From Patescibacteria group bacterium (lineage in GTDB: Bacteria > Patescibacteriota > Patescibacteriia > UBA2591 > UBA6264): DNA of 30,658 bases. The stretch is taken from contig JAQTOB010000008.1 in NCBI GenBank assembly GCA_028713575.1, positions 1 through 30,658 of the forward strand, given 5' to 3'. Position numbers and translations under genes: made by a program. Shown here piece after piece: positions 5,109-30,658 of the stretch; positions within the stretch are counted from its first letter, which is position 1; the number at the start of each line of letters is the position of its first letter. The notes under the pieces are model-generated. The model worked only from the letters and a program-made list of their open reading frames with translations. It was not told the origin of the DNA and made no database searches.

Positions 5109-5406
5109 TTTAACATTTTAACATTTCAACAATTTAAATGACAAATCCCAAGCACCCTGCCTGCGGCAGGCAGGCAAATAATCCAGGCTAGACAGGATCC
5201 CACTCCGCGGGACAAACAAATTTCAAACCCTAAATCCAAATAACTAAAATAAGATTTCTTATAATTTGTTCTGAATTTAAAAAATGAGAATTTAGACATT
5301 GATTTAGAATCTTGCTACTATTATACCAGATTCCGAGCAAATTTTAAAGAAAAAATCCTCGCCTCCGGGATATCTTTGGAGGGTGTACGCCTTCCAAAGA
5401 ACCCTT

Positions 5407-8747: not shown

Positions 8748-9377
8748 TTAAATATATTTTTCGTTTTTTATAAATTTCGGTCTTTCTTCTTTTTTTGATT
8801 CTTCTTTTACAAATTCTAAATATTCTTGACGGAGTTTTTCAACACTTCCGTCTCCGCCTAATGATAAAAATTGTTCACCGTCTATCAAACTATCTTTAAA
8901 ATTCCCTTTAAAATAAAATTGATAACTGCTCCAGCGGTAATTCTCCGGATTTTTTGCTAAACCAGCGCGAACCGCATTGAGGTCAATATAGGCGCTAACC
9001 GTCCAAAAATAAGATTCAGTATCTATTAAAGAGGCATAAAATCTGTCTTGAAATAAATGGCCGGTCCGCTTATGTCTATAATTAAAATAACCCGCATAAC
9101 AACCATTGACATAATGCATAATCTTAGAAATGGGGACGTCTTTTGTTTCTATAAATAAATGGACGTGATTTGACAAAAAATTATAAGAATACAAATAAAA
9201 ATTGTACAATTTTTTTGCCTTTTTAATAATTGCCAGCAATTTTTTGTAATCGCGAGCTCCCCTAAAAATACGCTTCTGATTTATTCCCCGACAAACAATG
9301 TGGTATATTTTTTCAGGGGCAATAATTCTTTCTCTTAATTTTCTGGTCATTTTAAATAAAATTTTAAAATTAATCAA
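8748..9377 (-). CDS. REP-associated tyrosine transposase (RAYT, IS200-like Y1 transposase), apparently intact
   Basis: IYHIVCRGINQKRIF, HUH motif SNHVHLFIE, GHLFQDRFY, and a catalytic-Tyr region YIDLNAVRAGL. The first 9 codons of the ORF-track call lie inside a repeat copy, so the start is more likely the Met at 9350 (MTRKL...). Confidence 0.85.
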   Translation of the reverse strand: MINFKILFKMTRKLRERIIAPEKIYHIVCRGINQKRIFRGARDYKKLLAIIKKAKKLYNFYLYSYNFLSNHVHLFIETKDVPISKIMHYVNGCYAGYFNYRHKRTGHLFQDRFYASLIDTESYFWTVSAYIDLNAVRAGLAKNPENYRWSSYQFYFKGNFKDSLIDGEQFLSLGGDGSVEKLRQEYLEFVKEESKKEERPKFIKNEKYI

Positions 9378-9578
9378 AATCGTGCCAAATTGAAATTTTT
9401 GCTCTATAAGTCTTTATTGGTGCGTGTTTCAGAAGGGACGTTCATGGGGTCAGACCCCATCCTTCAAATGTTAAATAAAATTTTAAAATTAATCAAAATC
9501 GTGCCAAATTGAAATTTTTGCTCTATAAGTCTTTATTGGTGCGTGTTTCAGAAGGGACGTTCATGGGGTCAGACCCCA
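9352..9578 (+). repeat. Two tandem family B elements (period 119 bp)
   Basis: 9352-9459 and 9471-9578 are near identical, with terminal hairpins at 9446-9458 and 9565-9577. They are followed by three CCCCATTATATTT mini-repeats (9574-9619). Confidence 0.9.
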
Positions 9579-9594
9579 TTATATTTAGACCCCA

Positions 9595-16636: not shown

Positions 16637-16880
16637 CAGTAAATCCCAATCCTCGCAAAAATTGATCAAAATCACACCAAATTTGAATTTTCGTTCTGTA
16701 AGTCTTTATTGGTGCGGATTTCAGAAGGGGTGTTCATGGGGTCAGACCCCAGACTCCAAGACCAGTAAATCCCAATCCTCGCAAAAATTGATCAAAATCA
16801 CGCCAAATTTGAATTTTCGTTCTGTAAGTCTTTATTAGTGCGGATTTCAGAAGGGGTGTTCATGGGGTCAGACCCCAGAC
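16637..16880 (+). repeat. Two tandem family B elements (period about 125 bp)
   Basis: 16637-16754 and 16762-16880, each starting CAGTAAATCCCAATCCTCGCAAAAATTGATCAAAATCAC... Hairpins at 16738-16750 and 16864-16876. Confidence 0.9.
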
Positions 16881-21115: not shown

Positions 21116-21240
21116 AAAAATATAAAGTATAAATCTTAAAATGCCTGTTTAAAATGCTAAATTTCAAATGTCAAAAGATAAACAACAAATAACAAATTCC
21201 AAATAACAAACAAATTATCTGCTCCGCCAAAGGCTAAATA

Positions 21241-21427
21241 AAATCCTTCTACGAGGTCTCGCCTCGTAGGTCAAAATCCTTCTACGAGGTCTCGCCTCGT
21301 AGGTCAAAATCCTTCTACGAGGTCTCGCCTCGTAGGTCAAAATCCTTCTACGAGGTCTCGCCTCGTAGGTCAAAATCCTTCTACGAGGTCTCGCCTCGTA
21401 GGTTGAGGTCTCGTCTCGTACAACGCC
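21241..21427. repeat. 5 x 33-bp tandem array of family A palindromes plus a degenerate sixth unit
   Basis: CTACGAGGTCTCGCCTCGTAG at 21249, 21282, 21315, 21348 and 21381, each followed by the identical 12-nt GTCAAAATCCTT. The loop is in the opposite orientation to the copies at 445-570. Confidence 0.9.
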
Positions 21428-21443
21428 TCTTAAATTTTAAATT

Positions 21444-22520
21444 TTATAACAATCCCTTCTTATATCCTAAATGTTTATAAGTTAGTTCTGTGGCTATCCG
21501 GCCGCGCGCTGTTCGGTTTAAAAAACCGGATTGTATCAAATATGGTTCGTAAATTTCTTCAACCGTATTTAAGTCTTCGCCGACGGAGATAGCTAAAGTT
21601 TTCAAGCCGACTGGTCCGCCAGAAAATTTTTCCACTAAAGCAACAAGAATTCGCCGGTCCATTTGATTAAGTCCCTTCTCATCTATTTCCATCATTTGCA
21701 AAGCTTGAATCGCCTCTTGTTTGCTAATCATATCTTTATCATTAACTTGAGCGAAATCCCTAACTCTTTTCAAAAGCCGGTTGGCTACCCGGGGCGTGAA
21801 ACGCGACCGCAAAGCGATTTCTTTGGCTGCGGCAGAATGAATTTCAATGCCTAAAATTTTAGCTGAGCGTTTAATAATTTCTTCTATTTCCGAAAATTGA
21901 TAAAATTCCAATTGATAAACCGCGCCGAACCGATCGCGCAAAGGCGGAGCAACCAAACTAGGCCGAGTGGTGGCGCCAATCAAAGTAAATTTCGGCAAAT
22001 CCAAACGCAGAATCTTGGCACTTGGCCCCTGACCAACTACCAAGTCCAAAGCATATTCTTCCATCGCCGGGTATAAAACTTCTTCAATTGTTTTATTCAA
22101 ACGATGAATCTCGTCAATAAATAAAATATCGTTGTCTTTTAAAGAAGTGAGAATTGCGGCTAAGTCTCCGACTTTTTCCAAAGCCGGACCAGAAGTCACT
22201 TGAATATCTGTTTCCATTTCTCGGGCGATAATATAAGATAGTGTCGTTTTTCCGAGTCCGTGAGAGCCATGAAAAAGAGCGTGCTCCAAAGATTCTTTTC
22301 TTTGTTTGGCGGCCTGAATAAATATTTTTAAATTCGCTTTTAACTTTTCTTGACCAATAAAATCAGCCAATGTTTTTGGTCGCAAAGTTAAATCCATTTT
22401 TTTGTCTTCGGGAAATTCTTGCTGACTAACAATGTGATTGTTTGTTTTTATGACCATGATTTCGTTTCTGATTACAAAATTATCTTTATAGAGTATACAA
22501 TAATTCTTTATCTTTGACAA
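21444..22520 (-). CDS. ruvB: Holliday junction branch migration helicase RuvB
   Basis: [16 protein letters not shown]...[14 protein letters not shown]...LFIDEIHRL...[16 protein letters not shown]. The start is probably the internal Met at 22457 (MVIKT...) rather than 22520. Confidence 0.93.
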
Positions 22521-22549
22521 TCTAATTTAAAATGTTAGAATTTACAAAA

Positions 22550-22912
22550 GGGCGCATAGCATAGCTCCCCATAAAATTTTACTTCGTAAAATTAACGGGG
22601 CAAGCAGTGGCAGACCTGCCTACTCTGCCTACCGGCAGACAGGCGGCAGGCAGGGCGCCACTTTTATAGTGATAATTTACAATCTATTTTGTCTTTGGTG
22701 AGCGTAATTCGGGCGTGTAGCTCAACGGCAGACCTGCCTGACGGCAGGCAGGGCGCCACTCTTATAGTGATAATTTACAATCCATTTTGTCTTTGGTGAG
22801 CGTAATTCGGGCGTGTAGCTCAACGGCAGACCTGCCTGACGGCAGGCAGGGCGCCACTCTTATAGTGATAATTTACAATTTAATTATTCTTTCTGGTGGG
22901 TGTAGTTAAAAT
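22550..22912 (+). repeat. Three tandem units derived from a tRNA-Ile 5' half, each interrupted by a GC-rich palindrome
   Basis: Units start at 22550 (diverged, 161 bp), 22711 (98 bp) and 22809. Units 2 and 3 begin with GGGCGTGTAGCTCA, identical to tRNA-Ile positions 1-14. Then comes CGGCAGACCTGCCTGACGGCAGGCAGG, then GCGCCACTCTTATAGTG, which mimics the anticodon arm GCGCTACTCTTATAAAGTAG. Confidence 0.8.
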
Positions 22913-22987
22913 GGGCGTGTAGCTCAGTGGTAGAGCGCTACTCTTATAAAGTAGATGTCGAAGGTCCGATCCCTTCCACGCCCACCA
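22913..22987 (+). tRNA. tRNA-Ile, anticodon UAU
   Basis: Manual cloverleaf: acceptor GGGCGTG/CACGCCC, D arm GCTC-AGTGGTA-GAGC, anticodon arm CTACT-CTTATAA-AGTAG (anticodon TAT), variable loop ATGTC, T arm GAAGG-TCCGATC-CCTTC, A73, and an encoded CCA. Confidence 0.8.
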
Positions 22988-23224
22988 GAAAGAATACTGA
23001 AAAGGTTAATTATCAATATATCGGCAACTACATATAAAAATAATGGGGAGTCGCCGCTATAAGCGGAAGGTTCGGGGGTTCTCAGCCACATTATTTATTT
23101 TTTGAGGTATGGCTGATCCACCGCTGGTGGAAAATCCCTCTGCTGCCGATATTAAAAACATTAAAACACTGGAATATTGGAATATTTTATTTTAAGGACA
23201 AATTGACATAATTATAGAATTTTT

Positions 23225-23974: not shown

Positions 23975-24201
23975 GGGCCGATAACTCAGTTGGTAAAGCG
24001 CCACATTTGTCCTGATTTTGTTAAAATTCAAAAAATTGAGGATTTTCTATAAATTCAGACGGGCCTATAGTTTAGTGGCAGAACGCTACATTTGCAATGT
24101 AGGAACGGCAGTTCGATTCTGCCTAGGTCCATAATTATATTTCCGCCCGAATTTATCAGAACAATGTGGAGGACTGGGTTCAAGTCCCCATCGGTCCGCC
24201 A
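23975..24201 (+). pseudogene. Interrupted tRNA-Ala(UGC)-like gene (outer copy), split in the anticodon loop by a 152-nt insertion
   Basis: 5' half 23975-24009: GGGCCGA TA ACTC AGTTGGTA AAGC G CCACA TTTG. 3' half 24162-24201: CAA TGTGG AGGA CTGGG TTCAAGT CCCCA TCGGTCC G CCA. It has a G3:T70 pair. The D stem (2 of 4 pairs) and T stem (3 of 5 pairs) are weakened. Confidence 0.55.
24061..24131 (+). tRNA. tRNA-Ala, anticodon UGC (inner copy)
   Basis: Manual cloverleaf: acceptor GGGCCTA/TAGGTCC with G3:T70, D arm GTTT-AGTGGCA-GAAC, anticodon arm CTACA-TTTGCAA-TGTAG, T arm GGCAG-TTCGATT-CTGCC, A73, and no encoded CCA. Confidence 0.85.
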
Positions 24202-28361: not shown

Positions 28362-29501
28362 ATGCAAAATTCTATCAGGACAAGTAAATCTAATATTTTT
28401 ATAAACCTTTTTGACAAAAAAAGGCGGATTTTAATTTACGCAGAAAAATCATTCGGCCTGAAAACACGGGAAAAATTTCCCACTTTAGCCAAAACCGCGG
28501 ACGGCGTATTACGTTACGCTAAGTATAAAATAAGCGGAGTGGTTGATTCCATATGTGAAGAAAAAAACGTGACGGAAGTTTTAAAAACTAAAAAAAATAT
28601 TCCTGTTTTTAAAAATTTGAAACAAGCAAAAGAAAAAACCAAAGCCAATACTTTAATTTTAGGCATTGCGCCCAGTGGCGGTCAACTCCCTGAATATTTT
28701 TTAAACGATTTAACCTGGGCTTTAGAAAACGGTTTGGATATTGTAAGCGGATTACACACGCCAATTTGTTCTTTTCCAAGTCTGTTCAAATTAGTTGGAA
28801 AATACGAAAGAAAAATTTGGGAAACCCGTTTGTCTCCGAACAATCTACCCATTGCCGGATGTCGGGTTTATCAAAAAATAAAAAAACCTATCGTTTTAAT
28901 GGTAGGTATGGATTCGGCTATTGGTAAATTAACGGCTACTTATCAATTGGCTGATTTAGCTAAAAAAAACGGATTGCGGCCACAAATCATTCCCACTGGC
29001 CAAACCGGCGTAATGATTGAGGGCTGGGGAATAACTATTGATAAATGCGAAGGCGATTTTATGGCCGGAGCAGTAGAAAAAATGATTTTGGAAAAAGATA
29101 AAGAAAAAAACCCTGATTTTTATTTAGTGGAAGGTCAGGGGTCCTTGTTTCATCCGGCCTATTCCACCACTTCTTTGGCCTTAATTCACGGTGCCTGTCC
29201 TACGCATTTGGTTTTGGTTCACCGACCACAAAGAAAAAGGGTGACTAATTGTCCTTTGTTAGCTGTTCCAAAAATAAAAACCGCAATTAAAACCTATGAA
29301 AATATGACCATGCCTCCGTTCAGAAAGGTCAAGGTGGTCGCCATTGCTTTAAATACCCAAGGGATGAAAGAGCAAGAAGCAAAAAAAACGATTAAAGAAA
29401 TCAAAAAACAAACCGGATTGCCGACAACGGACTTAATTCGCTGGCCCCAGGATTGGACGAAGTTATTTTTGAAAAAATTAAACAAAATCGCGCCAAATTG
29501 A
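28362..29501 (+). CDS. DUF1611-family protein (DgcN-like; function unproven here)
   Basis: VGMDSAIGKLTAT...IPTGQTGVMIEGWG...DFMAGAVE...VEGQGSLFHPAYS...LIHGACPTHLVLVH matches my memory of the DUF1611 family. The last 7 codons and the TGA stop lie inside a family B copy. Confidence 0.7.
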   Translation: MQNSIRTSKSNIFINLFDKKRRILIYAEKSFGLKTREKFPTLAKTADGVLRYAKYKISGVVDSICEEKNVTEVLKTKKNIPVFKNLKQAKEKTKANTLILGIAPSGGQLPEYFLNDLTWALENGLDIVSGLHTPICSFPSLFKLVGKYERKIWETRLSPNNLPIAGCRVYQKIKKPIVLMVGMDSAIGKLTATYQLADLAKKNGLRPQIIPTGQTGVMIEGWGITIDKCEGDFMAGAVEKMILEKDKEKNPDFYLVEGQGSLFHPAYSTTSLALIHGACPTHLVLVHRPQRKRVTNCPLLAVPKIKTAIKTYENMTMPPFRKVKVVAIALNTQGMKEQEAKKTIKEIKKQTGLPTTDLIRWPQDWTKLFLKKLNKIAPN

Positions 29502-29844
29502 AAAAATCCTTCTAAAATCATTTATTGGTACGGATTTTAGAGGGCCTCTTAATGGGGTCAGACCCCAAAAAAATACAAGGATTGGACGAAGTTATTTTTG
29601 GAAAAATTAAACAAAATCGCGCCAAATTGAAAAAATCCTTCTAAAATCATTTATTGGTACGGATTTTAGAGGGCCTCTTAATGGGGTCAGACCCCAAAAA
29701 AATACATTCGCTGGCCCCAGGATTGGACGAAGTTATTTTTGAAAAAATTAAACAAAATCGCGCCAAATTGAAAAAATCCTTCTAAAATCATTTATTGGTA
29801 CGGATTTTAGAGGGCCTCTTAATGGGGTCAGACCCCAAAAAAAT
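29437..29844 (+). repeat. Three tandem copies of [3' end of DUF1611 gene + family B element]
   Basis: Units 29436-29577, 29578-29706 and 29706-29844, with hairpins at 29554-29566, 29683-29695 and 29824-29836. Units 1 and 3 repeat TTCGCTGGCCCCAGGATTGGACGAAGTTATTTTTGAAAAAATTAAAC, which is coding sequence in unit 1. Confidence 0.9.
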
Positions 29845-30658
29845 ATGAAAAGTGTACATTTTATTGGTATTTGCGGAGTGGGAATGGCCGGCGTGGCTGT
29901 GATGATGCAAAAAATGGGTTGGAAAGTAACCGGTTCGGATAAAGGATTTTTCCCGCCAATCAGCGACTTTTTAAAAAAAAATAAAATTGATTTTTATCCC
30001 GGCTGGCATCCGGAAAAAATTAGTAATCCTGACATTATAGTGGTCGGTAATTTTATTTCTTTAAACAACCCCGAATATTTATTCGTCAAGAAAAAGAAAT
30101 TGGTCATAAAATCTTATCCAGAGTTGGTGAGAGAATATATTGTTAAAAAAAAGTCCGTGGTTGTGGCCGGCACTTTTGGTAAAACCACGATTGCCGCTTT
30201 TGTCGCTCATCTTTTTAAAATCGCCGGCCTAAATCCCAGCTGGTTTATCGGCGGATTGGCAAAAAATTTTTCCTGTGGCGCCGCAAATAATCAGGACAAT
30301 TGGAGTGTAGCTGAAGGAGATGAATACACTACGGCGCGCTGGGACTCGCGGTCAAAATTTCTTTTATACAAACCGACTCATTTAATCCTTACATCTATTC
30401 TTTGGGACCATCTTGATGTGTTCCCCCGGGAAAAAGATTATGACCGGGCTTTTAAAAAACTTATTAAAATCATTCCTTCTCAAGGCGTAATCATCGCCGC
30501 CAAAAGAAATGACACGCAGAAAATTGATAAAATAATTTCTCAAAGTAGGGCAAAAATAATCCGCTACGGACCCTATGAAGTCAAGTCCTATAAAACTGAT
30601 TACAGTTATGAAATAACATCTTTAAATGAAAACGGCTCCGAATTCGTCGTTTATCATT
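29845..30658 (+). CDS. mpl: UDP-N-acetylmuramate:L-alanyl-gamma-D-glutamyl-meso-diaminopimelate ligase (Mpl-like Mur ligase), partial; continues past the window end
   Basis: My own translation: MKSVHFIGICGVGMAGVAVMMQKMGWKVTGSDKGFFPPISDFL...VAGTFGKTTIAAF...AEGDEYTTARWDSRSKFLLYKP. GICG, FPPxS and EGDEY...D.RSKF are Mpl-like rather than MurC-like. There is no stop codon in the window, so it is absent from the ORF track. Confidence 0.8.
   Translation, partial: MKSVHFIGICGVGMAGVAVMMQKMGWKVTGSDKGFFPPISDFLKKNKIDFYPGWHPEKISNPDIIVVGNFISLNNPEYLFVKKKKLVIKSYPELVREYIVKKKSVVVAGTFGKTTIAAFVAHLFKIAGLNPSWFIGGLAKNFSCGAANNQDNWSVAEGDEYTTARWDSRSKFLLYKPTHLILTSILWDHLDVFPREKDYDRAFKKLIKIIPSQGVIIAAKRNDTQKIDKIISQSRAKIIRYGPYEVKSYKTDYSYEITSLNENGSEFVVYH

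Follow-up and report, generated by a model that had tools for sequence, protein, structure and literature searches.

The 30,658-nt stretch of the Patescibacteria contig JAQTOB010000008.1 analysed here (the window) carries, directly upstream of an intact tRNA-Ile(UAU) gene, three head-to-tail units that each begin as a copy of that tRNA. In our view the balance tips slightly toward these units being dead 5′ halves that stayed behind when an insertion replaced the resident tRNA gene and that were then multiplied by tandem amplification of a 98-bp block, and they are probably not functional RNAs. Debris of tRNA-gene replacement and duplication seems common in Patescibacteria, and the tRNA-Ala gene that neighbours the array in the window shows the nesting expected of serial replacement with particular clarity.

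A first-pass annotation of the locus had described a tRNA-Ile(UAU) after three tandem 5′-half units, and all of the parts that it described lie where it placed them, far beyond chance expectation. For comparison, loci of relatives (given by L numbers) were fetched via RuvB without selection for tRNAs, ~1.2 Mb in total. The elements of the locus are as follows.

22514-22541, + strand: sigma-70-type promoter, TTGACA-16 nt-TGtTAGAAT (11/12 matches, TG-extended -10), homologous to the tRNA-Ile promoter of L092 and L011
22550-22710, + strand: unit 1, a diverged tRNA-Ile 5′ half, standing where relatives have their tRNA
22711-22808, + strand: unit 2, consisting of tRNA positions 1-21, a 20-nt palindrome (22733-22752), tRNA positions 22-37 (GCGCCACTCTTATA) and a 42-nt tail
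22809-22912, + strand: unit 3, the same 5′ half with its palindrome at 22831-22850 and a tail (22861-22903) that forms the left inverted arm
22913-22987, + strand: intact tRNA-Ile(UAU) with CCA encoded (ARAGORN; Rfam, 72.7 bits)
22978-23020, + strand: right inverted arm, made of the final 10 nt of the tRNA and 33 nt of trailer
23038-23103, + strand: hairpin AAATAATGGGG / CCACATTATTT and then a T run, enclosing tRNA-like debris (CCGCTATAAGCGGAAGGTTC...) with a TATAA loop

The three units start at 22550, 22711 and 22809, and share a design of tRNA positions 1-37, a GC palindrome that splits the D arm, and a tail of 42-52 nt. The first 14 nt of the tRNA, GGGCGTGTAGCTCA, occur exactly three times in the window (22711, 22809, 22913) vs 0.06 times by chance, as had been reported for the units at 22711 and 22809. 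The palindrome CCTGCCTGACGGCAGGCAGG is present at 22733-22752 and 22831-22850 (0 expected by chance), the anticodon-loop remnant GCGCCACTCTTATAGTG at 22753-22769 and 22851-22867, with the variant GCGCCACTTTTATAGTG at 22655-22671 in unit 1, and the tail motif TGGTGAGCG at 22696-22704 and 22794-22802. The palindrome was earlier thought to replace the D loop; it is indeed present twice, but the alignment puts its insertion point after GGCAGA, within the 3′ strand of the D stem (GA/GC; GGCAGA/palindrome/GCGC), so that the stem strand is split and the loop is not replaced. Unit 1 does contain the extra hairpin noted previously, an AT-rich one at 22567-22600, along with a GC-rich palindrome cluster at 22609-22654, and its tail ends in TGGTGAGCG. 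Tandem Repeats Finder gives a period of 98 bp, 2.4 copies and 98% matches over 22644-22879, in agreement with a repeat search, and the near-identity of units 2 and 3 as 98-bp tandem copies is better explained by unequal crossing-over or slippage than by separate integrations.

Complementarity between the tails and the tRNA 3′ end had also been pointed out and is real, although it is far longer than was claimed. The tail of unit 3 and the 3′ side of the tRNA form a 43-nt inverted repeat (22861-22903 / 22978-23020) that is 84% complementary, begins at the anticodon-loop remnant TATA, and spans ACGCCCACCA and 33 nt of trailer, and in units 1 and 2 the tail is a diverged form of this arm. The early trailer (GAAAGAAT.CT.AA.AGG) is common to L017/L099. 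Further downstream, the hairpin at 23038-23103 is 90% conserved in L171 (L171:1-90) and may, together with its T run, be a terminator; as a tRNA(-Ile) 3′ half the debris that it encloses has no significance, with 62/300 shuffles scoring equally.

The comparison with relatives points to replacement. The gene order ruvB, tRNA-Ile(UAU), (83-aa membrane protein), tRNA-Ala(UGC) holds at 62-88% RuvB identity, and in L092 (RuvB 88%) and L011/L093 (86%) the tRNA itself starts 8-9 nt downstream of a homologous promoter, with no units. In the window, 8 nt separate the promoter from the start of unit 1, so unit 1 stands at the same promoter distance as the intact tRNA of the unit-less loci and thus occupies the native tRNA position. 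The anticodon-stem strand reads CCACT in the units, which is the type of the closest relatives, vs CTACT in the live window tRNA; the live gene is identical to that of L015 (75/75; RuvB 76%) and L174 (74/74; 73%) and shares 74/75 positions with L017. The tRNA-Ile types are scattered patchily over a neighbour-joining tree of RuvB, with three unrelated types in one clade of at least 90% RuvB identity (L190, L095, L014, L013), so the tRNA here has been replaced more than once. The start of the left arm, which coincides exactly with the TATA junction in the truncated anticodon loop, argues for replacement as well. As a separate observation on the gap between ruvB and tRNA-Ile, one relative only holds a ~220-aa ORF there (L013:1703-2579, reverse strand) with an N-terminal helix-turn-helix (Pfam HTH_23, E 6e-6), and this may be a homing-endonuclease-like or other mobile gene.

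Replacement is also argued for by the tRNA-Ala next door, which is inserted into the anticodon of an older gene.

23975-24009, + strand: 5′ half of an outer tRNA-Ala(UGC), GGGCCGATAACTCAGTTGGTAAAGCGCCACATTTG, broken after anticodon position 35
24010-24161, + strand: 152-bp insert in the outer tRNA-Ala, with an inner tRNA-Ala(UGC) at 24061-24131 and imperfect inverted arms at 24049-24072 / 24133-24156
24162-24201, + strand: 3′ half of the outer tRNA-Ala, CAATGTGG...CGGTCCGCCA, closest to the tRNA-Ala of L171 (63/75)

When the outer halves are joined across the split between anticodon positions 35/36, they make the anticodon loop whole again and yield a 75-nt tRNA-Ala with G3:U70 that is called by ARAGORN, its D and T stems being weakened. 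An intact gene of the outer type is found in L171, which is the closest relative by the 83-aa protein (five homologues of this protein were found), and the inner copy is of the L011/L016 type. L171 itself (L171:1700-1990) has a tRNA-Ala between perfect 12-nt GC-rich inverted arms, CCCCGCCACTTA / TAAGTGGCGGGG, and this armed gene sits in the D loop of a decayed L092-type tRNA-Ala, one nesting layer beyond what is seen in the window. The nested tRNA-Ala layers are direct evidence of serial insertional tRNA gene replacement in the lineage of the window.

The array varies between strains. A 517-kb JGI metagenome contig (L001) contains the whole window without a difference, and a contig from the NCBI metagenome-assembled genome GCA_028711035.1 (L002) is 99.5% identical to the window; both have three units, while L003 (ENA) and L091 (JGI, other sample) have two. 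The two-unit assemblies are exactly 98 bp shorter, lack unit 2, and are otherwise identical across the units, so the copy-number variation that the first-pass annotation proposed to look for in related genomes was found. Since four independent assemblies agree except in copy number, the array is a real, polymorphic tandem repeat, with the constant period and high identity of a tandem duplication and the whole-unit strain differences of a minisatellite. Mis-assembled expansion of a single partial copy could be suspected given that two assemblies are one unit short and that contigs L091 and L100 end inside the repeat. However, the observations contradict such an artefact, which we consider highly improbable: the three-unit form is found in two independent assemblies (the JGI contig and GCA_028711035.1) and the two-unit form in two others, at least two units (unit 1 and one more) are present in all four, and the units can be told apart by diagnostic substitutions and by their tails.

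Scars of integration and excision by an integrase, from an island or prophage using the tRNA as att site, were the explanation put forward initially, and partial tRNA copies beside an intact gene are indeed the usual signature (PMC9897764). An origin of the copies in rearrangement at a tRNA gene stands, but serial att integration and excision does not; it is contradicted by what is seen at the locus and scarcely credible. What has been copied is the 5′ half with the promoter side rather than an integrase-duplicated 3′ part, and the units form tandem 98-bp copies, whereas precise excision leaves no copy stack. No integrase, recombinase or cargo ORF was found between or beside the units, in line with the earlier annotation: the scan of 22521-23224 gave no ORF of at least 60 aa, just meaningless ones of up to 55 aa. 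Nor is there a phage or IMG/VR match, in that IMG/VR holds no exact match to the tRNA or the unit junctions and GenBank phages match the units by generic tRNA similarity only. The suggestion of a tRNA-derived SINE/MITE-like repeat gains no support from the sequences covered, with no other unit copy in the 30.6-kb window, homologues in the ~1.2 Mb of related loci confined to the L174 lineage at the orthologous locus, and none in IMG/VR or GenBank phages.

The features of the tRNA-Ile array recur in the fetched loci, which lends further weight to replacement. Among 86 distinct tRNA contexts, at least 12 show an intact tRNA gene accompanied by partial copies of itself (Gly, Leu, Cys, Ala, Arg, Val, Glu, Ile), and perfect inverted arms of at least 12 nt hug the tRNA in 7 of the 86, the top score in 1720 shuffles being 10. 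In L051 the left arm reverse-complements both the tRNA 3′ end, with its CCA, and the trailer, as it does in the window. Dead copies very often bear a GC hairpin in their D arm, at a site between positions 10 and 21; this holds for the window, L174, L033, L047, L056, L040, L038, L071, L053, L195 and L204. We use a provisional class, the "nested tRNA replacement cassette," defined by an armed intact tRNA that lies within or beside a broken copy with the same anticodon, into which both tRNA-Ile and tRNA-Ala of the window fall; the window units also have the GC hairpin in the broken D arm that serves as a provisional criterion. The palindromes are not restricted to tRNA remnants, as one further member lies elsewhere in the window.

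5156-5174, no strand assigned: the unit palindrome family represented a second time, by CCTGCCTG-CGG-CAGGCAGG, in intergenic DNA unrelated to the array

The CCTGCCTG..CAGGCAGG palindrome recurs in L038 and L144 in addition to this site, and a 21-mer of unit 1 recurs in L074. That the family occurs away from tRNAs fits a hairpin acquired by the dead copy, and solely from this dispersal we infer that the GC hairpins may be mobile. At 5156-5215 the palindrome copy (CCTGCCTGCGGCAGGCAGG) is followed by a hairpin (TCCCACTCCGCGGGA) and CAAAC, an arrangement that resembles the double-hairpin modules of the tRNA-Cys nests described below.

Several nests contain a small ORF of the GIY-YIG nuclease family. 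In 6/6 distinct contexts (L071, L053, L040/L132, L173, L195, L204) an ORF of ~82-91 aa lies inside the nest, in the space separating the broken half from the intact tRNA, and none was seen away from nests among the loci examined, a restriction that also favours replacement. These ORFs match Pfam PF01541 (E 1.8e-15 and 3.5e-9) with the catalytic domain only and belong to a family of at least 220 clusters, nearly all labelled Patescibacteria, for which the GenBank phage collection gave no match. A phage origin of the cassette was considered and rejected on this result and on the IMG/VR and phage searches above. The Rfam group I intron model (Intron_gpI) has 0 matches in the window and 0 in 12 related nest loci, and no Rfam family other than tRNA is present in those 12.

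Two kinds of nest deserve description in their own right. A single tRNA-Cys nest architecture is seen in four genomic contexts (L071:5040-5640, L053:7085-7660, L195:780-1500, L204:780-1230), starting with a 5′ half that has a double-hairpin insert in the D loop and is cut after the anticodon-loop GTCTG, and continuing with further double hairpins, a ~82-aa GIY-YIG ORF and an intact tRNA-Cys; the outer tRNA-Cys 3′ end follows the intact gene in L071, L053 and L195. The hairpin stems of these nests show compensatory differences between genomes, e.g., TCTCCCTACGGGAGA vs TCCCGCTACGCGGGA. In L173 (L173:1-600), an intact tRNA-Val(UAC) comes first, then a 91-aa GIY-YIG ORF, and last a broken copy that resembles tRNA-Val (Rfam tRNA, 30 bits) and has GC hairpins in the D region, with the gene order reversed relative to the tRNA-Cys nests.

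A number of points weigh against replacement at the tRNA-Ile locus, and several of them concern L174 (RuvB 73%). Here the order is promoter, leader arm, 5′ half with palindrome, an identical leader arm and the intact tRNA; the palindrome is GC-rich and 33 nt long, and its sequence is unlike that of the window, though its insertion site is the same (AGA/CCTGCC.../GCGC). The dead 5′ half equals the live one apart from the hairpin and has a leader arm ahead of it, a layout that fits plain local tandem duplication just as well. A hairpin site common to the window and L174 needs common descent, transfer of unit and tRNA together, or a site preference, and a design conserved in so distant a lineage could mean function. 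The agreement of the units with the tRNA type of the close relatives is suggestive, resting as it does on 2 nt. A resident tRNA-Ile 3′ half was sought downstream, and the alignment was no better than shuffles; with no demonstrable 3′ half, the tRNA-Ile locus is not a proven nest. No GIY-YIG gene was found in the window by tblastn with three GIY-YIG ORFs as queries, and a role of the nuclease in tRNA turnover is putative, suggested by association only. A complete nest at the tRNA-Ile locus was accordingly dropped as a candidate, and a split or intron-containing tRNA-Ile gene was rejected as well, there being no above-chance 3′ half downstream to join; the calls of ARAGORN in intron mode were only spurious chimeras, e.g., of an Ile 5′ half and an Ala 3′ half, and were not used.

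Local tandem duplication is the main rival to replacement. It needs no foreign cassette: a leader that was already complementary to the trailer would have been duplicated together with tRNA positions 1-37 through microhomology of TTATAG, with which the leader starts, to the anticodon-loop TTATAA, with decay, hairpin acquisition and slippage to follow. Such an origin is suggested by L174, which reads promoter-leader-5′ half-leader-tRNA with leaders and 5′ halves identical bar the hairpin, by TTATAG at every junction, and by 98-bp units that are classic tandem copies of variable number. Unrelated tandem arrays also occupy the leader between promoter and tRNA-Ile in L015 (~80 bp units), L016 (15 bp) and L183/L184 (~50 bp; the L183 leader is scaffolded with Ns), as they do many intergenic regions of the window, and this leader is a hot spot for repeat expansion. 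However, unit 1 of the window directly follows the promoter with no leader arm, the units carry CCACT as in close relatives but the live tRNA matches distant lineages at every position, the tRNA types are patchy on the RuvB tree, and the neighbouring tRNA-Ala shows that insertion of foreign tRNAs does occur in this genome. We regard local duplication as a serious possibility, albeit one with a good deal less than an even chance.

The promoter at 22514-22541 probably drives units 1-3 and the tRNA as a single transcript. Ahead of the tRNA, predictions give neither a further + strand promoter nor a + strand terminator, and the likely transcript therefore comprises all three units and the tRNA. 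Internal promoters in the unit tails were considered because TTTACAATC is -35-like, but there is no properly spaced hexamer pair and they were rejected. The whole transcript folds with a z of -5.0 vs shuffles and pairs the leader arm to the trailer in its minimum-free-energy fold, whereas the minimum-free-energy folds of single units form the palindrome hairpin only (z -2.0 and -2.6) and nothing tRNA-like. The units lack a T arm and a 3′ acceptor strand, and had 0 matches to the tRNA covariance model or other Rfam families even at E≤10, the real tRNA alone being detected. The idea of processed tRNA-like RNAs, raised in the first-pass annotation, is thus not supported. A T-box or riboswitch was likewise rejected as there was no Rfam match.

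A functional leader could take the form of decoys that pair with the tRNA 3′ end and trailer to control maturation, or of processed small RNAs resembling tRNA halves. The strong promoter, the transcript fold with its leader-trailer helix, and the ability of each tail to pair with the tRNA 3′ end are all compatible with this, as is the recurrence of design and hairpin site in L174, at a distance where neutral intergenic DNA is unalignable, and compensatory changes are known from the analogous hairpins of the tRNA-Cys nests. Yet the closest relatives (RuvB 86-88%) are entirely without units, the number of copies varies among near-identical strains, the window and L174 have unlike hairpin sequences, the same hairpin family turns up at unrelated sites, and the L174 trailer has no partner for the leader arm, so that leader-trailer pairing is not conserved. 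Single units are, hairpin aside, no better folded than expected and have no Rfam match. We consider a functional leader unlikely, and the absence of an ORF, a tRNA fold and an Rfam match leads us to read the units as dead.

If replacement is the correct explanation, events may have unfolded along the following lines. The start is observed in the syntenic arrangement of ruvB, tRNA-Ile(UAU) and tRNA-Ala(UGC), in which the promoter of the closest relatives directly precedes the tRNA. We infer a first step in which a module, an intact tRNA-Ile in inverted arms whose left arm reads as the tRNA 3′ end and trailer in reverse complement, entered the anticodon loop of the resident gene (TTATA/A) in the lineage of the window. 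The resident 5′ half, now unit 1, would have been stranded on the native promoter, the incoming copy would have taken over AUA decoding, and the resident 3′ half would since have been lost. A GC-rich hairpin of the dispersed family, partly a matter of observation, presumably lodged in the D arm of the dead half. The tandem duplication of the 98-bp block of 5′ half, hairpin and tail is observed, and its copies (2 or 3) are still gained and lost, by a route that may be unequal recombination or slippage. Today the array would act as a 363-nt 5′ leader that is read through from the single promoter and cut by RNase P at 22913, and the leader-trailer helix may help processing or merely tolerate it. 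The wider driver would be turnover of tRNA genes by hairpin-armed tRNA cassettes, some of which elsewhere carry a small GIY-YIG nuclease gene, with the window cassettes as putative ORF-less relics.

A bolder version of this scenario, which we put forward tentatively and give somewhat less than an even chance, proposes selfish "tRNA replacement cassettes" in Patescibacteria. These would consist of an intact tRNA in inverted hairpin-forming arms, with a ~82-aa GIY-YIG gene in the autonomous form, and would insert into a resident tRNA gene of the same anticodon (in the D arm, anticodon loop or T loop), killing it and substituting for it at once. Successive waves would then leave nested dead halves, the Ile and Ala loci of the window would be ORF-less relics, and the D-arm hairpin would mark or protect the cleavage site. 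If true, this would amount to homing without splicing, made harmless through a rescue copy.

The window is AT-rich (GC 31-42%) and encodes ordinary housekeeping proteins of bacteria, among them Der, Pth, FtsW, L27, a CtpA-like protease, RuvB and MraY, and its two tRNA genes by ARAGORN and Rfam are tRNA-Ile(UAU) at 22913-22987 and tRNA-Ala(UGC) at 24061-24131. The genes flanking the array are ruvB and that of the conserved 83-aa membrane protein. Other repeats are present: a dispersed 119-141-bp family is found at 9352-9579, 16637-16880 and 29448-29845, in tandem 2-3x per site, with the core AAAATC.CGCCAAATTGAA...TTATTGGTGCGGATTTCAGAAGGG..TTCATGGGGTCAGACCCCA kept; every copy is intergenic and adjoins gene ends, with 0 Rfam matches, and the family may be a small RNA or a promoter/terminator module. 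Perfect intergenic arrays of GC-rich hairpin-forming units lie at 21240-21403 between the protease gene and ruvB (33 bp x5, AAAATCCTTCTACGAGGTCTCGCCTCGTAGGTC) and at 2390-2494 (15 bp x7, GACCTGCCAAGGCGA). The GACCTGCC motif of these 33-bp and 15-bp arrays is also part of the unit palindrome, and the window has 8 copies vs 0.26 expected.

The first-pass annotation had missed the placement of the units on the native promoter, the nesting of tRNA-Ala in a broken copy and the recurrence of the design across Patescibacteria. Annotators should not take the array for tRNA-like genes or integrase att sites. The only AUA-reading tRNA of an AT-rich, streamlined genome apparently comes from a transcript with a 363-nt junk leader, which is unexpected in a reduced genome. 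Taken together, the array, the nested tRNA-Ala and the patchy types show that tRNA genes at a fixed locus are repeatedly replaced by foreign copies, and this bears on tRNA-based taxonomy and on the inference of codon usage in genomes of the candidate phyla radiation (CPR). Arms, D-arm hairpin and GIY-YIG gene may together represent a new, ribozyme-free invasion of an essential RNA gene that brings its own spare. There is also a practical side, as short-read assemblies break at these repeats and several contigs end within them.

Several known systems share parts of this picture. Integrating elements of prokaryotes leave tRNA gene fragments beside tRNA genes as att-site duplications (PMC9897764), and these too are partial, dead copies that adjoin an intact gene with the same anticodon and arise from DNA insertion at a tRNA gene. 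The fragments in the window, however, are promoter-side 5′ halves ~100 bp apart, tandemly amplified and without integrase or cargo, and the tRNA-Ala insert brings a whole replacement tRNA rather than a matching part. Phage T4 SegB is a free-standing GIY-YIG homing endonuclease in a tRNA gene cluster (PMC2330249) and drives segmental amplification of tRNA loci (PMC13096335). It resembles the Patescibacteria ORFs in being a small GIY-YIG gene among tRNA genes that goes with favoured inheritance or amplification of the tRNA region beside it, and nuclease-induced breaks can give tandem amplification. Unlike them, SegB works through gene conversion from phage genome to phage genome, with no broken resident halves left behind, whereas the Patescibacteria ORFs are ~82 aa with the catalytic domain only, chromosomal, absent from the phage collection and of putative activity; they lie inside a dead tRNA with the intact copy downstream, and the window has none.

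The split, multi-intron and permuted tRNA genes of Archaea and red algae (PMC4390854, PMC3978253, PMC4090602) also have helix-forming inserts in the D arm and anticodon loop, and tRNA-Ile(UAU) is among those affected. In those cases the gene is functional and the bulge-helix-bulge (BHB) splicing endonuclease carries out the repair on the RNA, while the outer copies of the window are decayed, partnerless in the case of Ile, and stand beside an intact gene in a bacterial host, with no group I intron detected in the window or nests. Mobile GC-rich hairpins are known from AT-rich organelle genomes, as the GC clusters of yeast mitochondria (PMC4478555) and the repetitive hairpin-forming elements of sponges (PMC2800124). 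They are similar in forming families of short GC-rich palindromes across a small AT-rich genome, both in intergenic regions and in RNA-gene remnants; the host domain is different, and the hairpins here are strikingly tied to the D arm of dead tRNAs, their putative mobility being read from dispersal. Within the same radiation, CPR rRNA genes carry insertion sequences and homing endonucleases (PMC11270868), so that stable RNA genes are unusually often interrupted and some inserts bring homing endonucleases. In those genes the inserts are removed or tolerated in a functional RNA, whereas here the interrupted tRNA is dead and a second gene replaces it. Full-text literature searches on CPR/Patescibacteria with tRNA and GIY-YIG, or with nested or partial tRNAs, yielded no description of the arrangement. 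None of the named systems combines an armed whole replacement tRNA, nesting with the same anticodon, D-arm hairpins and a minimal GIY-YIG gene. The array in the window is probably an ordinary by-product, the debris of a wider process that may itself be a new variant of homing-type mobility.

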